DNA of 64,000 bases from positions 143,406,001 to 143,470,000 of the forward strand of contig NC_091990.1 of the NCBI RefSeq assembly GCF_044704955.1. Reading direction: 5' to 3'. Below, in pieces: positions 1,351 through 63,830 of this stretch (within the stretch, counting starts at the first letter, position 1; each line of letters begins with the position of its first letter). The notes beneath the pieces were generated by a model. It worked only from the letters and a program-made list of their open reading frames with translations. It made no database searches and was not told the origin of the DNA. The stretch is from Pristiophorus japonicus (lineage: Eukaryota). The position numbers and the translations under genes are program-made.

Positions 1351-1374
1351 TTTCTAGTTTCAGCCGTTCTACAG

Positions 1375-1713
1375 TGTTAGATCTCTTAATTTCCAATGAA
1401 ATACGAACTCCGATGGTAGTTTTAACTTCTTTATTTTGTCAGAGAGCAACAAGCTGCTGGCTGATTGCCAGTTCCTTTGTCTTACTGGGACCACATGGTC
1501 AAAATGGCTGTATTTATACCGGGTTCAATTTGCAGAAAAGAACTAGCCTTCTTTGACCTTATTGGCTCAATTAATAGTCTTTTAACGTTTTAATTGGCTC
1601 GCTACCCAAGGTCCGAAAATGTTAAGTTGATTGATGACTTAATGCAATGTGGCCTGTGTTTTTTCACAGCCTGTCTAAATGCAGCCTGGCTGCAGAGCTT
1701 GAATTCTCTATCA
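1375..1713 (-). repeat. ERV 3' LTR
   Basis: TG...CA ends. On the minus strand: two CCAAT boxes (1561-1565, 1593-1597), TATAAATA (1511-1518), AATAAA (1430-1435). About 9 substitutions versus the 5' LTR by manual comparison. Confidence 0.95.
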
Positions 1714-1730
1714 ATCCCCCCTTTGATTCT
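1714..1730 (-). promoter_or_regulatory. Polypurine tract of ERV
   Basis: Minus strand AGAATCAAAGGGGGGAT directly precedes the 3' LTR. Confidence 0.85.
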
Positions 1731-1988
1731 TTCACAAACTGAATCGTAAAACTTCAGGTATCACTGGTTAAACAATCTACAAAATAATTTCATACATGTT
1801 AATAGAGTTTCCTTCTAAAATTTGTTGATGTGTTTCGCCACATATCCGGACTAGTAGCTTCCACACAAATTTACACCAACCCGAGTTCCATCGTGGCCAC
1901 AAAGGAAGTCTGGTTTTAGTAGGTTAATTAACCTTATTCCAATTTAATCCAAATCAATATCTTAATTCAACCAGTAAACAACCTTTCC

Positions 1989-3341
1989 TTAAGCATAACA
2001 TACTCCTGTGCCACATACAGATGGTCTGCTGGGACCTGCAAGGTGTCTCACATGCGGGACAGCAGCTACAGCCACCTGGTCGCAACAACATTTAATCAAC
2101 ATAAACAAACAATATAAAAATAAAACAATTACAACAAATAGAATTAAACCTTCCACCAATGAAGTTCCTATTGAACCTAGCCATTCAGTGGCTCCACTCC
2201 ACAAAGTGAATGATGGGGGTTGCTTAAGTTTTTCTACCTCCTTTTGGATATGCTCTGCTAAGTGGGTAATTTCTTCGGAGCTATCTGGGATATATGTGCA
2301 ACACTCAGTTCCGAGTAGGGCGCAAGTATCTCCCTTTTCAGCCAGGATGTAGTCAAGGGCCAGTCTATTCTGTAGGGCTACTGTGCGGATTGCTACCATT
2401 TCTGTATTGATTTTAACTAGAGCCTCTGAAGTATCATTGGCTACTCGTTCCACAACGGATGCCATGTTAATGGATTCCCGTGCCAGTCTTGCGGTCCCAT
2501 ACCTGGGGATCAGAATGGCAAAGAACCTCTCTGTTTCTGTGATAGCTCTCTTAGGACGGTGTAAATGTTCCGACAGTGACTTTATATGATACATATAAGG
2601 CACAATGTTGGCTAAATAGCAGGATCCCATCCAATTCTGGGGCAGCCAAGGGTAGGCCTTGTGGCCACACACCCAATAGGTGCCATTATATGCAATGAAT
2701 GTTAGCTGTTTCTTTGTCAGCAACACTCCGGGGCCTGTCCAGGCTTTTCCATCTGTTTTATTCAGAATCCCCATTACGTTAAAAATTCCCACATTGGCCC
2801 AGTTTGGACGGTTCCGTGGCTTGATTATATTATAATTCCGGGAGCAGTTACTATACCCCATATTTTGGCCTCCTTTGATGTTTCTAATCAAACAGACCAA
2901 TTCCCCCGGTCTTCCTATTCCCGTTGTATTAGTGATAACAAAAAATGGGGGCCGTTTGGAATTATTGTAGCACGGTTGGTATCCCCCTTCAAAGGTAGTC
3001 AGATTGTAACCTGCTGACTTCCATTTACGTGCCCAGTTTTCCGTATCCTAAAACACATTGCCTGTTTTGTTTTGATTAATTATCCACTCAGCCATTTCCG
3101 AGATATTCAAGGGAACTGGCCTCAAGGGAATCCCTCCCTTTGAGTGAATAGGAATATGCATACACACCCAACAACTAGAAATGTTACCTTGTTTGGCATA
3201 AATGTATGACATATATAAAAAGATATTTACATGTAATTCCCTTGCTACCCTACTATTTCCCTTTGGTGCAGAAGGTCGGCTAGTAAGAAGTAGGCCTATG
3301 CCTAGAATACCTACAATCAATAATACAGTAAATGTATACAT
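1989..3341 (-). pseudogene. env: ERV envelope (gamma-type SU/TM), one in-frame TAG at 3048-3050
   Basis: ORFs 3048..3341 and 1989..2900 are in the same frame. Signal peptide, CWVC (CxxC), furin site RPKR, fusion peptide, ISD LQNRLALDYILA, CX6CC (CALLGTECC), transmembrane helix. Confidence 0.93.
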
Positions 3342-3365
3342 TTTCGCAAAAAGTAATTGTCCTTA

Positions 3366-3803
3366 TTAGATTTCAGCTTCAGTTATGGGTGCTCGTTTAA
3401 CATGTGAAGCGTGGATCCAGGCTTTCTTTCCTTGGACTTTAACAGCTGCCTGGGTGGTCAATAACACTTGATAAGGTCCCTCCCACTTGGCACCCAAAGG
3501 TTTTTTATGCAACTTTTTCACATACACCCAGACTCCCGGGATGATGTCGTGTCCTCCTTCGGGTGGATCACCCCAAGCTGCCAATACCTGTCGGGAAACA
3601 GAACTAATAGCATTGGTTAAGTTCTGACAGTATGATAACAAAGTGTCACCCATTAAGTGAACATCAGCTTTCCGTAAATCGATAGTTCCTGGCAGCGACA
3701 TGGGTCTTCCTGTTATAATTTCAAATGGACTTAGACCTGTAGTTCTGTTCGGGGTTGCCCTAATGCTACATAGCACTATTGGTAGTGCCTGGGGCCATGG
3801 TGT
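3366..3803 (-). pseudogene. ERV integrase C-terminal remnant
   Basis: WPQALPIVLCSIRATP...TGLSPFEIITGRPM...WEGPYQVLL (GPY/F module)...WIHASHVK; no HHCC or DDE core upstream. Confidence 0.88.
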
Positions 3804-4207
3804 TCCTTCATTTCTTCTTTCTTCAAAGTTCTAATTGACCAAGTCACCCGACCATCCTCAAAATGCAATGATGAATCTACTTGGATTAGAACGTCCATTC
3901 CCAAAAGGGGTTGATCTACTGGGCCTATCCAGACCGGCGTGGTTAGTTCATGTGGACCCAGCCCTATAAGTACCAGTGTTGTCCTTTTAATTTCCATTTT
4001 ATGGCCTCCAACTCCATAGGCTGTACGTACCCTACCATCCAACGGCAAAAAGTCTCCATATTGTAGGGGTAAGCATGTTAATTCCGCCCCTGTGTCTAAA
4101 AGACAGTTCACATCCTTATCGCCCATCCTCACAGTTATATATAGCCCATCTCCCCTTTGTTGTATCAGTGCGAGGAGGTGGGCCAGGGTGGGCTCTAATC
4201 GTTTTTT
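3804..4207 (-). CDS. pro: ERV aspartic protease, in the -1 frame relative to gag
   Basis: LLDTGAELT catalytic motif, GVGG flap, LLGMD. The frame is open back to the A-AAA-AAC heptamer at 4207-4201. Confidence 0.88.
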
Positions 4208-5762
4208 GCTATCCCAAGTAACTCCTTCTGTTGTTGTATTGTCAGTCGCTTAAATGCTTCTATGAGGTCGTTATCTTGTGACAAGCCTGGCTTGTTGGCT
4301 GAATTGTATCCCTGGCTGCGTCCTCTTCCCCAGCCACGACCTTTCTGTTTGGCCCTGCACGTCTTGGCCCAGTGACCTTCTTTCCCACAATAATGACATA
4401 TTCCGGGTAATTTTCCTAATAACTGTTTATCGGAATCCTGGGATTTCCATCCCATAGCCTGTACAGCTCGGACTTTAGCTCCCATATCCCGATCTAATTG
4501 GTTACATCGATCCACCAATGCTGCAAAGGTAGTTCCTCTACCTTCCCAGTCCGGTAACACTACCTTAAGCATTTTGGACAGTTCTGGCTTTAGACCTGCC
4601 ACGAAAGCTGCTTTCAGGGGTCCAAACACTTGTTCATCCATTTCCTCATCCGTATTATTCATACCCGAATGTTCTAGCCATGTGCATCTAAACCGCTCGT
4701 CATACTCCAGGATCTCGTCTGTTCCTTTCTGTTGGCAGGCTGCAATTTTTCCCCAGTCTGTCTTAGCTGGACTGAAGGCTTGCAGCCAGTTTTTAATCGC
4801 CTCCCATCCTGCGTCTAATTCTTGCTCATTCTGCCCCAAAGCTTCATCTACCTTGTCGTGCAATTTTCTTCCCTGTGTTTTTGGCACCATTATGGTCAAA
4901 ATTTGAACTCCGTCCCAGGGATGAAGTTGATATATATTTCTTAAGCGGTCCAATTGGTCCCACGTTTTTACTCCCCCTTTCTTTGGATTGGGCAATTCCT
5001 TGGACCATTTATCAATTTTCTCTGGGTCTGCCGGAGCATGAACTAAGTATTCTTCGTACACCCTTCTTTTTGTTTTTTTGGTTCCGCCCTCATCCGCAGT
5101 CTCTTCTGATTTGACTACAACTCGTCTTTTTTTTTTAAAAACGGGGCAAAGCGCACCCCTAATTCGTCATCCTCCGACACTGTATTGTCGGAGGATTCAG
5201 AATCCATATCTATTCCTTGGTCGTGTCTTCGGGTTTGCACTTTTAATTTATCCAAACATGGGTACCCTGGGAATTGATCAATACATTTTCCTTTTCCTAT
5301 TACTGTCTCTTGACCTAATGATTTTTTCCATTCTTTAATTTCACCTTTAAGATCTTTAACTTCCGCTTCCAGCTTTTCAAGTTCAAGCTTTTTCTGTCGC
5401 AGCTGCGCACAAACTGCATGCAATTGATCCTTTGTACTGGTCAGTTCTCGATCATGTTGGGAACGCATTATAATTTCATTCCTGTTTCGAATCTGACCCA
5501 TAACCGCTAGGGACCATCGAGTTCGCTCTTTATTTTTCATACGGGTCGTTTTTCCCCAGACCCTTTTAATCTCGTCCAAGGACCATTGTCCTTTGGAGGT
5601 TCTGTACTTTTGTTCGATCTTAAGACAGGTTTTAGATAAGTTGAATTATTGCTCTATGTATTCTTTCAACTGTTCGAGGATTTCATCTAGCAAAACTTCT
5701 GGTGGTGCCTGCCCACCTTTAACAGTTGTAGATAATTCTTTGCTCTTATCTCCTGCTGCCAT
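4195..5762 (-). pseudogene. gag: ERV gag (one premature TAA near 5646, one frameshift near the T-run at about 5126-5136)
   Basis: ATG at 5762 (MAAGDKSKEL); ORFs 5115..5579 and 4195..5061; CCHC knuckle CHYCGKEGHWAKTC; MHR-like QQKGTDEILEYDERF. Confidence 0.88.
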
Positions 5763-6029
5763 TATATTGATTTGTTTACTGGGGTCTCACGTCGTAGGCT
5801 TTCTAGCCGATCAATAGGTTGGTGATTAATTAACTAACACACCGCCGAAGTTTAGACATCTATGGAACCTCGAGCCGACTACCAACCGGAGGGTTCGCAA
5901 ACCGGAGGCTTTCGGAATCGCGTAGAAGGAGAGGCGAATTTAGACTTTTGACTGAGGACTTTTTAAAAAGAGCTTTCCTTACCTCAGTATGTAGGTCCGA
6001 TGTCCAAAATTCAATTTCTTTCCTCAGCG

Positions 6030-6047
6030 ATCCTGTTCGTGACGCCA
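6030..6047 (-). promoter_or_regulatory. Primer-binding site complementary to tRNA-Ser(CGA)
   Basis: TGGCGTCACGAACAGGAT, 4 nt from the 5' LTR, is complementary to the recalled vertebrate tRNA-Ser-CGA 3' end ...ATCCTGTTCGTGACG-CCA. Confidence 0.8.
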
Positions 6048-6051
6048 AAAT

Positions 6052-6390
6052 TATTAGATCTCTTAATTTCCAATGAAATACGAACTCCGATGGTAGTTTT
6101 AACTTCTTTATTTTGGCAGAGAGCAACAAGCTGCTGGCTGATTGCCAGTTCCTTTGTCTTACTGGGACCACATGGTCAAAATGGCTGTTTTTATACCGGG
6201 TTCAATTTACAGAAAAGAACTCGCCTTCTTTGACCTTATTGGCTCAATTAATAGTCTTTTAACCTTTTAATTGGCTCGCTACCCAAGGTCCAAAAATGTT
6301 AAGTTGATTGATGACTTAATGCAATGTGACCTGTGTTTTTTCACAGCCTGTCTAAATGCAGCTTGGCTGCAGAGCTTGAATTCTCTATCA
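6052..6390 (-). repeat. ERV 5' LTR
   Basis: 339-bp copy of 1375-1713; the terminal CA is mutated to TA. Confidence 0.95.
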
Positions 6391-6627
6391 TACAGGCATT
6401 AAATGGCCACACAATCATTCAATATGGCAGGCAGCATTCACAGCACATTCCCAGGTGGAGGTGAACCATATTGGTATAGGCATCCAGAACCCATGCTCCA
6501 AACAGGTGTTAGGACCTTTGCATATATAAATAAGGGGCCTACAGCCTGTTGAATGCACCCTTTACCAAATTGGTTTGCCCTGAATGCAGCTAGCATTGAG
6601 GCGCCTGCATTCACTAAAACAATGTCT

Positions 6628-9959: not shown

Positions 9960-12640
9960 AATGTGGCCAAGACTTGTGGGAGGCCAGAGGATTGGGAAAG
10001 TTTTAAAAGCCAGCAAAGAATGACTAAAAGAATGATAAAGAGAGGCAAGATAGATTATGAAAGTAAACTAGCACAAAATATAAAAACAGATAGTAAGAGT
10101 TTCTACAGGTACACAACAATGAAGAGAATGGCTAAAGTCAATGTTGGTCACCTAGAGGAGGGGACTATGGAATTAATAATGGAGAACAGGGAAATGGCAG
10201 ACATTGAACAAAAATTTGGTTCGGTCTTCATGGTAGAAGAAACAGCAAAAGATACAGCAAGTAATCAGGAAGGCAAATGCAATGTTGGCCTTTATTGCAA
10301 GGGGGATAGAATATAAAAGCAGAGAAGTCCTGCTACAACGGTACAGGGTATTGTTAAGGCCACACCTGGAGTACTGCATACAGTTTTGGTCTCAGTATTT
10401 AAGGAAGGATATCCTTGCATTGGAGGCTGTTCAGAGAAGGTTCACTAGGTTGATTCCGGAGATGAGGGGGTTGACTTATAAAGATAGGTTGAGTAGGTTG
10501 GGCCTATACATATTGGAGTTCAGAAGAATGAGAGGTGATCTTAGTGAAACATATAAGACAATGATGGGGCTCGACAAGGTGGCTGCAGAGAGGATATTTC
10601 CACTCATAGAGGAAACTAAAACTAGGGGACATAGTCTCAGAATAAGGGGCAGCCCATTTAAAACTGAGATGAGGAGGAATTGTTTCTCTCAGAGGGTTGT
10701 AAATCTATAGAATTCTCTGCCCCAGAGAGCTGTGGATGCTGAGTAATTGAATATATTTAAGACGGGGATAGACAGATTTTTGAATGATAAGGGAGTAAAG
10801 GGTTATGGGGAGCGGGCAAGGAAGTGGAGCTGAGTGCATGATCAGATCAGCCATGATCTTATTGAATGGCAGAGCAGGCTCAAGGGGCCAAATGGCCTAC
10901 TCCTGCTCCTATTTTTTATGTTCGTATGTTCTTAAGACCCTAAAAACATCTCAATAGTGGATAATCAAGGGGCTATAGGGAGGGAGGCACTTACTGCAAT
11001 CACTATCACTAATGAAGTAGTACTCGATAAAATAATGGGAATAAAAGCGGACAAGTCCCCTAGACCTGATGGCTTACATCCCAGGGTCTTAAAAGAAGTG
11101 GCTGCAGAGATAGTAGATACATTGGTTGTAATCTACCGAAATTCCCTGGATTCTTGGGTGGTTCCAGTGGACTGGAAAACCGCAAATTTAATGCCCCTAT
11201 TTAAAAAAGGAGGCAGGCAAAAAGCAGGAAAATGTAGACCAGCTAGCCTAACATCTGTTGTTGGGAAAATGCTGGAGTCCATTATTAAGGAAGCAGTTGC
11301 AGGACATTCGGAAAAGCATAATTCAATCAAGCAGATACAGCATGGTTTTATGAAAGGGAAATCATGTTTGACAAGTTTACTGGAGTTCTTTGAGGATGTA
11401 ATGAGCAGGGTTCATAAGAGGAACCAGTGGATGTAGTGTATTTGAATTTCCAGAACGCATTCGATAAGGTGCCATATAAAAGGTTACCGCACAAGATAAA
11501 AGTTCACGGGGTTGGCGGTAATATGTTAGTTAGCCAATCCTCTATCCATGCTAACAGAAAACAGAGAGTTGGGATAAATGGGTCATTTTCCGGTTGGCAA
11601 ACGGTGACTAGTGGGGTGCCACAGGGATTGATGCTGGGTCCTCAACTATTTACAATCTATATTAATGACTTGGATAAAAAGGGACCGAGTGTAATGTAGT
11701 CAAGTTTGCTGATGATACAAAGATAGGTGGGAAAGCAAATTGTGAGAAAGACACAGAAAATCTGCAAAGGGATATGGACAGACAAAGTGTGTGGGCAAAC
11801 ATTTGGCAGATGGAGTATAATGTGGGAAAATGTGAGGTTATTCACTTTGGCAGAAAAAAATAAAAAAGCAAATTATAACTTAAATGGAGAAAAATTGCAA
11901 AGAGCTGCAGTACAGAAGGAACTGGGGGTCCTTGTGCATGAAACACAAAAAGTTAGCATGCAGGTACAGCAAATATTCAGGAAGGCAAATGGAATGTTGT
12001 CCTTAATTGCAAGGGAGATAGAGTATAGAAACAGAAAGTCCTGCTACAACTGTATAGGGTTCTGGTGAGGCCGCACCTAGAGTACTGTGTACAGTTTTGG
12101 TCTCCATATTTAAGGAAGGATATACTTGCATTGGAGGCCGTTCAGAGAACGTTCACTAGGTTGATTCCGGAGATGAGGGGGTTGACTTATGAAGATTGGT
12201 TGAGTAGCTTGGGCCTATAAGTATTGGAGTTCAGAAGAATGAGAGATGATCTTATCGAAACAGATAAGATAATGAGGGGGCTCAACAAGGTGGATGCAGA
12301 GAGAATATTTCCACTCATAGCGGAAACTAAAACTAGGAGACATAGTCTCAGAATAAGGGGCAGCCCATTTAAAACTGTGATAAGGAGGAATTGCTTCCCT
12401 CAGAGAGTTGTAAATCTATGGAATTCTCTGCCCCAGAGAGCTGTGGAGGCTGGGTCATTGAATATATTTAAGGCAGAGATAGACAGATTTTTGAGCAATA
12501 AGGGACTAAAGGGTTATGGTGAGCAGGCAGGGAATTGGAGCTGAGTCCATGATCAGATCAGTCATGATCTTACTGAATGGCGGAGCAGGTTCGAGGGGTC
12601 AAATGGCCTACTCCTGCTCCTATTTCTTATGTTCTCATGT
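9960..12640 (+). mobile_element. CR1 LINE (ORF2 RT region to 3' tail) with a second CR1 3' fragment nested at about 10241-10933
   Basis: [31 protein letters not shown] motifs; two 3' UTR/tails at about 10930 and 12635. The host reading resumes across the insert, with AAGA on both sides. Confidence 0.88.
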
Positions 12641-21369: not shown

Positions 21370-22580
21370 TCAAGCAAAGTGCTCATTTATGAGCTGCTGA
21401 CATAAGAGTCTTGGAGTTATGCGGCCACCACGGGCCCTTTACTGCGGCCTAGAAGGGGGTGGGGGCATGGCTTCAGGGTCAGCCTGATTGTCTGACCCGA
21501 GGTCAGCATCCACCTCCTCGTCCTTCTTTTCCTCTCTCTCCTGAGGTGGACCGTCAGTCCCTTCTGGCAATTCTTGTCCCTTTCTGATAGCCAAGTTGTA
21601 CAGCATGGAGCACACCACCACGAATTGAGCTACCTGTTCAGGGTGGTATTGGAGCTCGCCTCCCGAGTGGTCCAGGCATCTAAAGCGCTGCTTAAGCACA
21701 CCAATGGTTTTCGCAACAAAATTGCGTGTAGCCTATGGCTCTCATTATATCGCTTCTCAGCTTCTGTGTGGGTGTTACACAGGGGTGGTCATCAGCCAGG
21801 TGGTGAGGCCATATCCTTTGTCACCAAGCATCCAGCATTGACCTTGTGGCTGACTGGTAAACATGTCAGATACAGCGCTCTCACACAGGATGTGAGCATT
21901 ATGGATGCTGCCAGGAAATTTGGCATTCACTGCCCTAATTATTTGCTGGTGATCGACAACGAGTTGCACATTCTGGGAGTGGAATCACTCTCGGTTCTGA
22001 AAAGCCTCTGCATCTTGAAAAGCTGCCCGCATCGCGATGTGCGTACAGTCTATTGCTCCCTGCACCTTGGGGAAGTTAGCAATTCGGTAGAATCCTCAAG
22101 CCCTCTCAATCTGAGCCTTCCTGGTCATAGGGAAGCTGATGAAGTCCATCCTGAGTACGTAAAGGGCGTCATTGACCTGTCTAATGCAACAATGTGTGGC
22201 ATGCTGAGATATAGTGCAAATGTCGCCAGCTGAGGCCATAAAGGAACCTGACGCATAGAACGAAAGTATCGCGATGCCATTGACCTCGACGGAAAGTGCG
22301 GACCTGATGGTGCTGGTAGGCTGCAGATCTCCCCTGATGAGCTGGCATATCTCACTGATAATCTCTTTGTGGAAGCGCAGTCTCCTAAGCCAGATGTTAT
22401 CGGACAAGTTGAGGTAAGACCACTTCTCCCTGTAAGTGCAAGGGCTGAAGATCTGGTCCTCCTCATCAGTCTGGCAAGTCTTAGATTGGGCACATTATGC
22501 TGTCGAATATACCTTCTGCCATCTCTAGTCTGCAGCATGTGTGTAGTCATCAAGACAGGCTGAGAAATGACAGGCCCCAT
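21370..22580 (-). pseudogene. Harbinger DDE transposase (HARBI1-like), disrupted
   Basis: RRLRF, FYASGSF, GAIDCTH, QLVVD, FPGSIHNA, MLGDKGY, LKQRFRCLDHSGG spread over several frames. Confidence 0.92.
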
Positions 22581-24703
22581 TCCAATAACTATCAGTATTA
22601 TACCTATTGTTCACAAACAATAAATTTCCCCACTAAGACACCTAAACTAAATTCCAAACATCCACAGTATGATAAGATGTTTGTTCAGATCTTCACATCA
22701 CCTTAAAAGAACTCCAGAGTACATCAAAACTTTCCAGAAGTTGACACAGCCTTTTAAATGAAGCAACCTGTGATGTAGAATATGGCATCCATACCGCAGT
22801 GATTAGTTCATGTGAGAGCAACTTTTTCACAGAGTTTCTTTTGGCAAGCGGTATTTTCGGTGATAGGTGTGCGAAGCGCCGATTTTGGCGGTATTTTGGG
22901 CATTAGTTTCAGAAAATCTGATCTTTACGATAAAAAACAGTGGGTGGGCAGTATTATTAAATCTCAGCATTAATTAAATGCCGAAAGTAATGCGGGGCAA
23001 TATTATGGCCGTTGGTTTCGCCCATTCTGATCTTTCCGCCCCAAAAAAGGGGGTGGACGGTATTATATTTTATCGGCGTTAAGTACATTCCGAAAGTTAC
23101 GCTTGGTGATAAGTGACCGAGAAATAGGCGCTAGTTTCCATTTTGTGGCTAAATGGGTGATATATGGGCGTTATCCCTCATCTCAGCATTAAAATGGACG
23201 TTAAGTGGGCGGTATGCATGCAAAAATAATGGAAAGTCTAGCCCTATGAATTTAATGCAAGAGTAACATCACTGACTAATTATACATGGATTGAAATCAG
23301 ATTCACAAATTTCCATGTCTGTCATTTGTCCATATATTAAAATGCCCACCCCTGTCTGTACTTGATTTTTCATTCACTTGATGAGGTTTTACAGTAAACT
23401 GCAGTCATCAACTGAACTGTAGGGATAACATTTTCTCAAGATTAAAAAAAACTATGTTAAAGCTCAGTTCATATAATGTAGAAATATGAAAAGAATATTA
23501 ATGATCTTCTGATACTTGTGTATGTATGTAGTGAATGTACAAATAAAGGGAAATGAGAGTACAGAAGATTGGAAATTAAATCCACTATGGATAAATTTGG
23601 ACTGGAATTTATCATCGATCTGAACAATTTGTTGACACTAATCAGACTCATTTCATATCAGAACTTTACAACTAGCAGAGGGAGGAGGCTTTCCTGAAAT
23701 CATTCCGAGCTGGGTTTAGATCCTGGTCTAAGACATGGAAGGATTGTACGGATTCTACGGCACTATCCAGTCCTCTCCTCTAATTGTCTCCCTATTGTTT
23801 CCTCAAACTGTAACCCAGAGTGTCATGTAATCAGTAGAAAGTAGCTGTCAGTTGCTCAAAATGGATATGAACTGTTCAAATTATTTTATGCCTCTTCTCA
23901 GAGCATATTTGTTAAAGGAACTTGCCTTGTAGAATTCAACAGATAACTGGTGAGGAGAATCCATGAGAAAGAAAGAAAGACTTGGATGAGAGTGTGTCCA
24001 GTGTTTCAACCTTAAGTTGCCTCACCCAAAGCAATATATAAAGCTAGTAATTGGGTGAATAAGTTCCTGTTACTCTCTTTTTTGCTAACAGCTCCAAAGA
24101 AAAACACACACGGCCAGTGTGAAGTTTGATATCAAAAGAAATAAATCCCAGTGTACCAGTGCAGGTATAAGAAGGGTAGCAACAGAAAATTCTCACGCAC
24201 AATTCAAAGGCTGCTTAACTAATGCAGAGTGAAGGCTAGTTTGTATAAAGTGCTGCATTAGATATAGGCCAAGCTCGTATGAGGGCTCAAGACCAATTTG
24301 CGATGCAAGTGCATGAAAAGTATATGCAGGACTGCTGGCAGTGACTAATTTAATTGCTCTGCTTCCAATCTCTGAATGCACACTGCCTGAGGACAGTTTT
24401 GACTATTGTTTTAACAATAGCAGTAACTGGATTCCAACTGAGGGTACAGCAGAGAATGGAGAGATTATTAGGAGAATACAGAGAATTGTGTCAGTGCCAG
24501 TTGGGAATTCAGGGAGTGCCCTGTTCCTTCAGAGTCATCACTTGATGTTAATTTTCCCAATTTAAAACACTATTGCCCATAACTAAAGACAAATTGGAGT
24601 TGAAATGGCAATCTTATTTAGAAAGGTTAGAAATGGAAAGAATTCACACTGATTCAGTTGAGGACAGTCACCTAAGGCGAGTGTTAAGGCACACTCACGT
24701 GGG

Positions 24704-61059: not shown

Positions 61060-63830
61060 CAGATTGTAGTTGACACTCAGCATTGCCCTGATGCAACACG
61101 CACCCAACCCCATAGGATGATGCATCACATGTCAGAACCAATTTTTTACAGGAGTCGTACAGGGTCAACAACTTGTTTGAACAAAGTAGGTTTCGCGCCC
61201 GATCAAAAGCCCGTTCCTGACAGTCCCCCCAAAACCATTCGCAACCCTTACGCAGGAGCATGTGTAGCGGCTCCAACAACGTGTTCAAGTTCGGCAGAAA
61301 GTTCGCGAAATAGTTCAACAGTCCCAGGAATGAACGCAACTCCGATGTGTTGCAGGGTCTGGGTGCTCATCGAATCGCCTCTGTTTTGGATTCAGTGGGC
61401 CGAATCCCATCTGCAGCAACCCTCCTGCCCAGACACTCAACCTCAGGAGATAAGAACACAAATTTAGACTTCTTGAGTCGCAGGCCTACCCGGTCCTGTC
61501 GGCGTAGCACCTCCTCCAGGTTGTGGAGGTGTTCCTCGGTGTTTCAACCCGTGATGAGGATTTTGTCCTGGAATACGATCGTTCCAGGAATGGATTTAAG
61601 CAGGCTTTCCATGTTTCGTTGAAAAATCGCGGCCGCTGATCAAATGCCAAACGGGCACCTGTTATAAACAAACAGTCCCTTGTGCATGGTGATGGTGGTC
61701 AGTAGTTTAGATTCGTCGGCCAGTTCCTGGGTCATATAGGCTGAAGTGAGGTCCAACTTGGTGAACAGCTTGCCACCTGCCAGCGTGGCGAAGAGGTCCT
61801 CCGCTCTCGGGAGCGGGTATTGATCTTGTAGGGACACCCGATTGATGGTGGCCTTGTAGTCGCCACAGATCCTGACAGAGCTTTTAGGACGGGAACGATG
61901 GGGCTCGCCCAGTCACTGAATTCAACAGGCGAGATGATGCCCTCTCTCAACAGCCAGTCCAATTCGTTCTCGATCTTTTCCCGCATCACATACGGCACTG
62001 CTCTGGCTTTGTGGTGCACTGGCCTGGCATCCGGGGTGATGTGTATCACTACTTTAGTGCCTTTGAAAGTCCCGACACCAGGTTGGAATAGTGAATCGAA
62101 TTGTTGTAGGACTTGTGAGCACGAACTTCGCTCCACAGATGACATTGAGTGAACATCCCCCATTTCCAGTTCATCTCGGCTAACCAGCTCCTCCCCAACA
62201 GTGCGGGACGATTGCCGGGACAATCCAGAGCGGCAGCCGATTCACTAACCCATTGTGTGTGACAGCCAACATTGCACTTCCTAGCACCGGAATGATTTCT
62301 TTAGTGTAAATCCGTAATTGTGTCGCAATACGTGCTAATTTGGGTCTACTGGCTTTAAGTGGTCATTGCTTCTCAAATTGCTGAATGACCATGAATGACT
62401 GGCTGGCCCCAGTGTCCAGCTCCATGCGTACTGGGATACCGTTTAATAAAACCCTCATCATCACTGGTGTCATTTTGGTGTATGAACTGTGAATATTCGC
62501 CACATGGACCTGCTGAACCTCGGCATCCATCGGTTTGCCCCAAAAGTCATCCTGCCTCAAAGAACCCTCTTCTGTTCCATCCGCCTCATATATTAGTCTG
62601 GTTGCAGACTTCCTGCACATTCGAGCGAAGTGGCCACTGAGATTGCAGTTCCTGCAGATAAACGGTTGAAATCTGCAAGATCTAGCTGAGTGTTTTCCCC
62701 CACACCTTCAGCATGAGTTAAAGTTTCCATTATTGGAAACAAAGGGACTATGGCCAGGCATTCCGTGCTGACTGTCCCTTTGACTGCTCTTAAGTACCCT
62801 CTTAGTGGGTGTTAATGGCCCCATCCCGGGCCGCATTGTCCACTGTGATGGTGTGAATGTCCGTTCAGCCTGCCATTGTCTCTGTTGAAGTCCTACTCTG
62901 GGGTCTATTGCTGCCTGGGGAGTGTCGGACTGCCCCTGCCTGCCTGCGAAGCTCTGAGTCGCATTGATGATGTTGACTCCCTGATCCATCGCCGCGTTAG
63001 AGGCAGAATTGCTTGCGTATATTATTTTCGTTTCCTCCTCCCCCGCCATGAAAGTTTGAACTATCAACGCCGCCGCTTCCAAGGTCAAATCCTTGGTCCA
63101 ATTAATTTGCGGAAAATTTCCGCATGACCGATGCCCTCGATAAAGAAGACCCTTAGCATCTCCCCCCTGCAGGCATCTGTGAACTTACAGAGGCTGGCCA
63201 AATGCTGGAGGTCCGCTACGAAGTCCGGTATGCTCTGTCCTTCACGACGTCGGTGGGTGTAGAATCTGTGTCAGGCCATATGTATGCTACTCGCCGGTTT
63301 GAGGTGCTCCCTGATCAATTTGCTAAGTTCTTCAAAGGTTTTGTCAGCCGGCTTTTCGGGTGCTAGTAAGTCCTTCATGAGCGCGTAAGTTTTTGGTCTG
63401 CAGATGGTCATAAGATGAGCCCTTCGCTTGTCGGCTGCTGCATCCCCCAGCCATTCTTTCGTAACGAAGCTTTGTTGAAGCCTCTCGACAAAATCATCCC
63501 AGTCTTCCACAACACAGTACCGTTCCTCTGTGCTACCGGTGGCCATTCTCGTGGGTCGTGAATTCCCGTTTCTCGTCGCCAATGTAAAGTCCTTACTCTA
63601 CAGCATGAAACCACACGAGACACATTCTGGGGACAAGGTCACTCTGTGACCTTAACTCTTTATTCACAGGACTCCAAAGACGATGACCCTGCGTAGGACC
63701 TCCCTTTTTATACCTGTGTGATCAGGTAAGGAGTGTCTCCCACAAGTTCACCCCTTGTGGTCAAGGTGTGCATCTAGGTTGAATGTATACAGTAATACAG
63801 TGATGTTACATTGTGGTTACATACATGACA
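61060..63830 (-). mobile_element. Gypsy/Ty3 LTR retrotransposon (K02A2.6/Mag-like), 3' truncated in RNase H
   Basis: gag ATG at 63546; protease ELDTGAS; RT WASPIVPV, YPLP, KLDL..AY, RCPFGI, FQDK; RNase H LTCDASSYGVG; PBS TGGCGACGAG (63572-63581). Confidence 0.92.
63583..63830 (-). repeat. Gypsy 5' LTR (248 bp)
   Basis: TGTCATG...TTTACA on the minus strand, with TATAAAA and AATAAA, directly followed by the PBS. Confidence 0.85.

Follow-up and report, generated by a model that had tools for sequence, protein, structure and literature searches.

A decayed, pol-deleted shark provirus with a putative -1 frameshift signal between gag and protease

The window analysed here is a 64,000-nucleotide stretch of contig NC_091990.1 of Pristiophorus japonicus (positions 143,406,001 to 143,470,000), and it carries on its minus strand an endogenous retrovirus (ERV), a provirus spanning 1375-6390 of the window. 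The two long terminal repeats (LTRs; 3' LTR 1375..1713, 5' LTR 6052..6390, both minus strand, as are all features described below unless stated) are 339 bp long and differ by 9 mismatches, 5 of which are transitions, with no gaps; the terminal CA of the 5' LTR is altered at 6052-6053. Comparison of the flanks revealed a target-site duplication (TSD) of 5 bp (1370..1374 and 6391..6395, no strand), and the TG...CA ends leave no room for a 4-bp reading. The polypurine tract (1714..1735) adjoins the 3' LTR at 1714. The primer binding site (PBS, 6030..6047) is that of tRNA-Ser(CGA): 15 of its 18 nucleotides match the 3' end of a gene called tRNA-Ser(CGA) by ARAGORN, and the remaining 3 pair with CCA. 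The PBS pattern was found at six loci, one called Ser(CGA) by ARAGORN, one called Ile and four uncalled. The Kimura two-parameter divergence of the LTRs (0.027) corresponds to 6, 14 or 61 Myr at rates of 2.2e-9, 1e-9 or 2.2e-10 per year, and does not fix the age of the insertion. Neither a second copy nor a solo LTR of the provirus was found in the 64-kb window, and the pre-integration site could not be reconstructed from the other long interspersed nuclear element (LINE) copies in the window.

Between the LTRs, gag (4195..5762) encodes a protein that lacks Gly2 and has a coiled-coil-type N-terminal region (weak family matches only), a capsid and a single CCHC zinc knuckle (4357-4398; its Pfam score is slightly below the cut-off). 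The protease (3810..4207; DTG at 4096; Pfam RVP, E 8e-7) is an open frame, placed -1 relative to gag. It is followed by an integrase remnant (3366..3809) made of the end of the core and the GPY/F C-terminal domain (GPY at 3479; MLVIN_C, E 7e-16), and then by a short gamma-type env of 450 codons with a transmembrane anchor (1989..3341; TLV_coat, E 4e-17), in which CWVC (3173), a furin site RPKR (2558), an immunosuppressive domain (ISD, 2375) and CX6CC (2324) were recognized; the syncytins are its closest relatives of solved structure. A candidate splice donor AG/GTAAGG (5978..5985) is a motif match alone.

This copy is decayed. gag is interrupted by a stop (5646-5648) after about 39 codons and by a frame change in an A/T stretch at about 5128-5140, a stop at 3048-3050 breaks env, and the locus can supply neither Gag nor Env. 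The protease is the sole open frame among gag, pro and env, and closes a few codons past its junction with the integrase remnant. The strongest 60-nt fold of the provirus (-27.3 kcal/mol) begins within gag (5195-5220, minus strand), upstream of the frame change. The original prediction, made from the sequence alone, had described an LTR pair with about 9 differences in 339 sites, a 5-bp TSD, a tRNA-Ser PBS, a polypurine tract and a gamma-type env with CxxC, ISD and CX6CC, all of which were recovered. It had also stated that gag, pro and env remain, which holds for the DNA, although only pro is open; its label 'env-retaining' is weakened by the broken env. A fusion of the protease to the integrase C-terminus at about 3800-3805 had been seen correctly, but the junction is an 11-bp repeat (3799..3809, no strand), and the last integrase-core helices survive, out of frame with pro.

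Parts of the element were present in 9 of the 11 public sequencing runs listed, from organisms A, B and C, and four runs were aligned to positions 1714-6520; run X9 (organism C) gave 4 short contigs only and was not used. In run X1 a contig (depth 13.8) bridges the joint between the 5' LTR and its flank without differences, which places this insertion in X1. Summed depth in X1 had a median of 334,730 across 27 internal bins, compared with 13.8 for the locus's own LTR-flank contig, figures that were not converted to a copy number; the provirus belongs to a many-copy family. The window and the X1 contigs differ at 219 sites, 40 of which were displayed; at 15 of these 40, including the env stop, the letter of the window has a depth of at most 103 in X1 and is nearly private. 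A co-opted env was rejected as an explanation because env bears this near-private stop, and strand-biased hypermutation was rejected because the changes are symmetric (A>G at 47 and T>C at 42 places in X1). Several distinct low-depth env deletions were seen in X1 contigs from other copies (window 1866-3439).

About 2.6-2.7 kb of pol is absent from the provirus, comprising reverse transcriptase (RT) and RNase H, together with the N-terminus and catalytic core of integrase; comparison with full-length relatives puts the loss at 874-912 codons. Contigs with loose ends, leading into sequence that is not in the window, were found behind 3809 (runs X1, X5, X7) and before 3799 (X5, X7). Manual reading shows that the sequence beyond these ends corresponds to the integrase core of P0002 and the start of RT of P0001, two Heterodontus francisci proteins, which implies that undeleted copies exist. 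Both edges of the deletion bear the same 11 bases. In X5 (organism B) one contig matches 3396-3809 and extends 493 nt further, and a second enters at 3799 and reaches 4247 with 0 gaps; these contigs pass both ends of the junction into pol, unbroken, at a depth of 72-92, and no branching towards the deleted form was seen. The deleted form is therefore absent or rare in organism B. The exact junction sequence had 0 matches in metagenome contigs and in viral contigs, collections in which shark DNA is not expected and whose silence is thus uninformative.

Most probably pol was lost through an ordinary deletion in a copy that has decayed, and there is a reasonable likelihood that its junction is private or confined to a few loci; a junction common to other loci is rather improbable. 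In the latter case the pol-less form could be a non-autonomous subfamily spread with the help of full-length copies, the present locus being one decayed member, as the original prediction had considered possible; we regard this explanation as doubtful. Two features expected of such a subfamily are present, namely intact cis elements and an undeleted, many-copy partner. EAV-HP is a pol-less non-autonomous ERV of this kind. A short repeat at the junction also fits a template switch before integration, but short-repeat deletions arise singly as well; the relative P0003, for example, has lost, in frame and independently, a segment reaching from early RT into the integrase core. Many differences of this copy are private, and the X5 contigs cross both junction ends unbroken. 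The explanation by a single deletion is in turn opposed by two observations. The tables for organism A, like runs X1 and X7, leave room for a subfamily defined by the junction, X5 coming from a different organism. Furthermore, when 14 deleted pol proteins of a teleost relative were compared, 6 had one deletion in common (residues 654-1076 of P0042, removing RNase H and the integrase core and keeping RT), yet differed in sequence; such subfamilies can thus arise in this lineage. These six proteins (P0035, P0161, P0170-P0173) lie near the Danio-named P0183, their common pol deletion is in frame, and they are possibly a trans-mobilized subfamily; the cluster of P0042 has 3937 members. Unless the junction proves to be shared, the deletion in the window is of little importance.

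The original prediction did not mention that pro lies in the -1 frame behind a slippery heptamer. gag ends K-N-D-stop on a zero-frame A_AAA_AAC (putative slippery site, 4201..4207), one codon ahead of its stop (4195-4197), and the open -1 frame at this place is the protease. A predicted stem-loop (4127..4192, inner stem about 4142-4185) starts 8 nt past the heptamer (-22.8 kcal/mol, z -1.95, 9 of 200 shuffles). Among 19 slippery-type heptamers, the one at 4207 has the strongest downstream fold (-21.0 kcal/mol), which ranks 17th of 992 windows. A -1 programmed site is defined by X_XXY_YYZ in the zero frame, a structure 6-9 nt downstream and an open -1 frame (PMC3835772), and all three sequence features occur at this putative site. 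The X5 contig from organism B is gap-free over 3799-4247, so the -1 layout is a trait of the family rather than a lesion of this copy.

The ends of related Gag proteins point in the same direction. Homologues at E<=1e-10 numbered 43, of which 20 have one CCHC knuckle; 13 of these stop 30-70 residues beyond it. A GN, KN or LN ending, as encoded by XXA-AAC codon pairs, occurs in 9 of the 13 when 0-2 residues are allowed after it, the expected share being about 3% per protein. These nine represent about seven independent proteins, mostly 22-37% identical. Among weak gag matches a slippery-type ending was present in 1 of 13, and that one is a family member. Teleost Gags end in EKN, and the fused forms have EKKL or GKKL at the same position, which forces A_AAA_AAY there; heptamers outside the window were deduced from protein and not read in DNA. 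From these layouts we infer that Gag-Pro-Pol is very probably made by -1 frameshifting on A_AAA_AAC and the stem-loop. Some points weigh against this: the hairpin alone is modest, as judged by its z value and shuffles; the 30-70 residue cut was chosen after the endings had been seen, 10 of 20 proteins passing without it, one of them probably by chance; and the nine positives include three that share 59-69% identity. It is very unlikely that the offset is not programmed, pol being translated from a spliced RNA or from its own start, or the offset being a product of decay. A -1 offset at gag-pro was reported for 17% of gamma-like ERVs, and the frames of old ERVs are noisy (Jern 2005); database pol proteins of relatives start at Met codons near the start of protease. 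However, the layout is gap-free in organism B too, and three different slippery codon pairs at the end of gag in such divergent proteins are unexpected under decay or splicing.

The original prediction had also proposed a poorly sampled cartilaginous-fish lineage, to be checked with full-length relatives and an RT phylogeny. A Heterodontus protein shares 86% identity with the integrase remnant, and teleost and unnamed proteins share 56-67%; the best gag matches are from Scyliorhinus (44-50%), then Pimephales, Cirrhinus and Esox, and relatives with a full pol bear names from Astyanax, Coilia, Alosa, Danio, Cyprinus and Gadus. The lineage therefore stands outside the well-described families, as proposed, but is not specific to sharks. 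In an integrase tree made with the window and 33 of 81 matches, the window joins the family at 90/87 (unstarred). Of the 144 rows left after filtering, 53 entered the RT tree, in which near-duplicates and redundant bird and Gypsy rows were not included. In this tree the family's ten rows group together (98/97) as the sister clade of 28 class I rows (100/99), with a joint node at 100/98, and stand apart from six rows with a DY motif and from Gypsy; the teleost RTs fall beside, not inside, the sampled class I clade. A search for related loci in viral contigs gave no retrovirus reference. Forcing the family together with the six DY-motif rows was disfavoured in the approximately unbiased (AU) test (p 0.03). 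Compared with a relative, murine leukaemia virus RT scored 444 bits and foamy virus RT 210 bits. In a BFVD ranking of a Pol model, the best named matches were walleye dermal sarcoma virus (WDSV, 37%) and gammaretroviruses, foamy virus reaching 21%, and two of the top eight were unnamed; the model is poor (mean pLDDT, predicted local distance difference test, 42.7) and the ranking serves as a lead only.

On this evidence we consider it likely that the lineage of this family, found in sharks and teleosts, branches beside the gamma/epsilon (class I) clade. Several observations count against this placement: the integrase of the window groups with the teleost relatives at no higher support than given above; the window has no RT, and the RTs of teleost relatives serve as proxies; the tree has no named row for snakehead retrovirus (SnRV), ERV-S or WDSV, and long branches meet near its root; the AU value is only 0.03, for a class III group that was named after the tree had been seen; and the relatives carry a class III-like RT motif, WRLTVDYR. 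A second deep lineage (P0048, P0049, P0053) was observed outside class I and outside this family, and its Heterodontus protein has two zinc knuckles and an RLTIDY motif. The Heterodontus francisci gene models P0001 and P0002, annotated 'zinc finger protein 850-like' and 'ervk-19', include stretches of the present ERV family; in P0001, zinc-finger exons are joined to fragments of gag, protease, RNase H and integrase.

Elsewhere in the window, an 809-codon open frame on the minus strand (49992-52421) encodes the endonuclease end and RT of a CR1-type LINE, and further LINE pieces lie at 701-1374, 10237-11436 and 58018-58518. Gypsy-type gag-pol-like fragments were noted at 61732-63184 (minus strand) and Harbinger-type transposase-like fragments at 21496-22610; all these family labels were given by eye.

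The anatomy, the junction repeat, the undeleted relatives and the frame layout were observed directly. Taken as a whole, the explanation that appears likely on balance is that the locus is a defunct member, with an internal deletion, of a shark ERV family of many copies, from a shark-teleost lineage beside class I whose parent virus used frameshifting. In this parent virus, tRNA-Ser(CGA) would prime reverse transcription, integrase would yield a 5-bp duplication, Env would be translated from a spliced RNA, and ribosomes would slip back one base on A_AAA_AAC ahead of the stem-loop, just before the gag stop, to make Gag-Pro-Pol. pol would have been lost through recombination between the two copies of the 11-bp repeat, either by a template switch during reverse transcription or by end-joining once the provirus was in place; this most likely happened a single time or at few loci, and decay followed.

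Published markers of retrovirus taxonomy assign stop-codon readthrough to gamma- and epsilonretroviruses and SnRV, and frameshifting to alpha-, beta-, delta- and lentiviruses (Jern 2005; PMC13517186; PMC3835772); a 2026 review (PMC13517186) adds salmon swim bladder sarcoma-associated virus (SSSV) and zebrafish ERV (ZFERV) to the readthrough group. A frameshifting fish lineage beside class I would break this split, and the order of change can be tested on a tree. No description of frameshifting in fish retroviruses was found by title or start of abstract, a search in which subscription papers, Repbase reports and supplements were mostly outside the scope. The chances seem evenly balanced that this is an undescribed genus-level lineage, spread over sharks and teleosts and forming the sister group of all gamma- and epsilonretroviruses, with a conserved -1 frameshift on interchangeable A_AAA_AAC, G_GGA_AAC and U_UUA_AAC, combined here with a Ser primer, a 5-bp TSD and a short gamma-type env. 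If so, the switch between frameshift and readthrough would be placed at the base of class I, and the mode of translation would no longer mark a class.

Comparison with known groups shows that the lineage departs from class I, ERV-S, ERV4 and SnRV-like elements in at least one tested feature each. According to Chong 2014, a 4-bp TSD goes with zinc fingers and GPY/F in ERV1, and ERV3 and ERV4 have a 5-bp TSD and neither of the others, TSD length not being strict. The element has the 1-2 zinc knuckles, the GPY/F and the gamma-type env (CxxC, ISD, CX6CC) of class I, and lacks the single-frame gag-pro layout of readthrough and the typical, though not strict, 4-bp TSD. With ERV-S it shares the 5-bp TSD and the Ser PBS but not the absence of knuckle and GPY/F; identity with ERV-S or ERV4 is contradicted by the presence here of both features, which those groups lack. 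With SnRV-like elements it shares one zinc finger and a coiled-coil Gag without Gly2 (the coiled coil being weak), but not readthrough.

The deleted form resembles ENS-1 and Bik-2 (PMC12067270) in having kept its cis elements and lost pol; those are multi-locus families, whereas a single locus is known here with the junction, and its gag and env are broken. Bhikhari was rejected as a relative, being described as a lokiretrovirus.

The original prediction had considered the mix of class features unusual. The features are real, but XtERV-S of Xenopus (PMC8278194) is already described with a Ser PBS, a 5-bp TSD and a class I env of 441 aa with CWIC near its N-terminus, short like the 450 codons with CWVC of the element. 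XtERV-S and HERV-S (PMC8278194, PMC4724089, PMC5753468) also share with the element the lack of a Gag myristoylation signal, and have deleted genomic copies too. In contrast, XtERV-S is a class III element described with no zinc knuckle, a dUTPase, in-frame readthrough and a Ser(AGA/TGA) primer (PMC8278194), whereas the present element possesses a CCHC knuckle and GPY/F, places pro at -1 to gag and has a PBS for Ser(CGA). SnRV and lineage I of CmiERV (PMC4422223, PMC2717909) are described, like the element, with one zinc finger and a coiled-coil, non-myristoylated Gag, as standing between class I and III, and as having cartilaginous-fish relatives; SnRV differs, by its description, in readthrough and in accessory open reading frames, none of which is evident here. 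These likenesses raise the possibility of a backbone from class III or from an SnRV-like virus (clade Huo), bearing a class I env in the manner of XtERV-S and HERV-S. The elephant shark is known to harbour an SnRV-like lineage (PMC4422223), and unclassified SnRV/Ovex1-like ERVs with GPY/F or a zinc finger exist (Chong 2014). We nevertheless regard such a backbone as unlikely, in view of the knuckle and GPY/F that ERV3 and ERV4 lack, the readthrough of SnRV, the RT tree and AU test, which unite the family with class I, and, with low confidence, the WDSV and gammaretroviral matches of the Pol model.

The epsilon-like fish viruses of clade Mu (WDSV, SSSV and ZFERV) resemble the element in the best named Pol matches, the zinc knuckle, the GPY/F tail, the gamma-type env and the fish hosts; they differ in being described as using stop-codon readthrough (PMC13517186, PMC3835772), and the TSD of ERV1 is usually 4 bp, as against 5 bp here. 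A class I env combined with a Ser primer and a 5-bp TSD is already known, and the part worth pursuing is the probable -1 gag-pro frameshift. Most zebrafish class I ERVs resemble an ancestor type of epsilon- and gammaretroviruses (Bai 2021, PMC8672886), a paper whose main text contains none of the whole words frameshift, readthrough or TSD. The Danio protein P0183 falls in the present family, which may or may not include those elements, and the lineage has probably already been seen in trees. A close relative occurs in zebrafish, which allows study in a laboratory animal.

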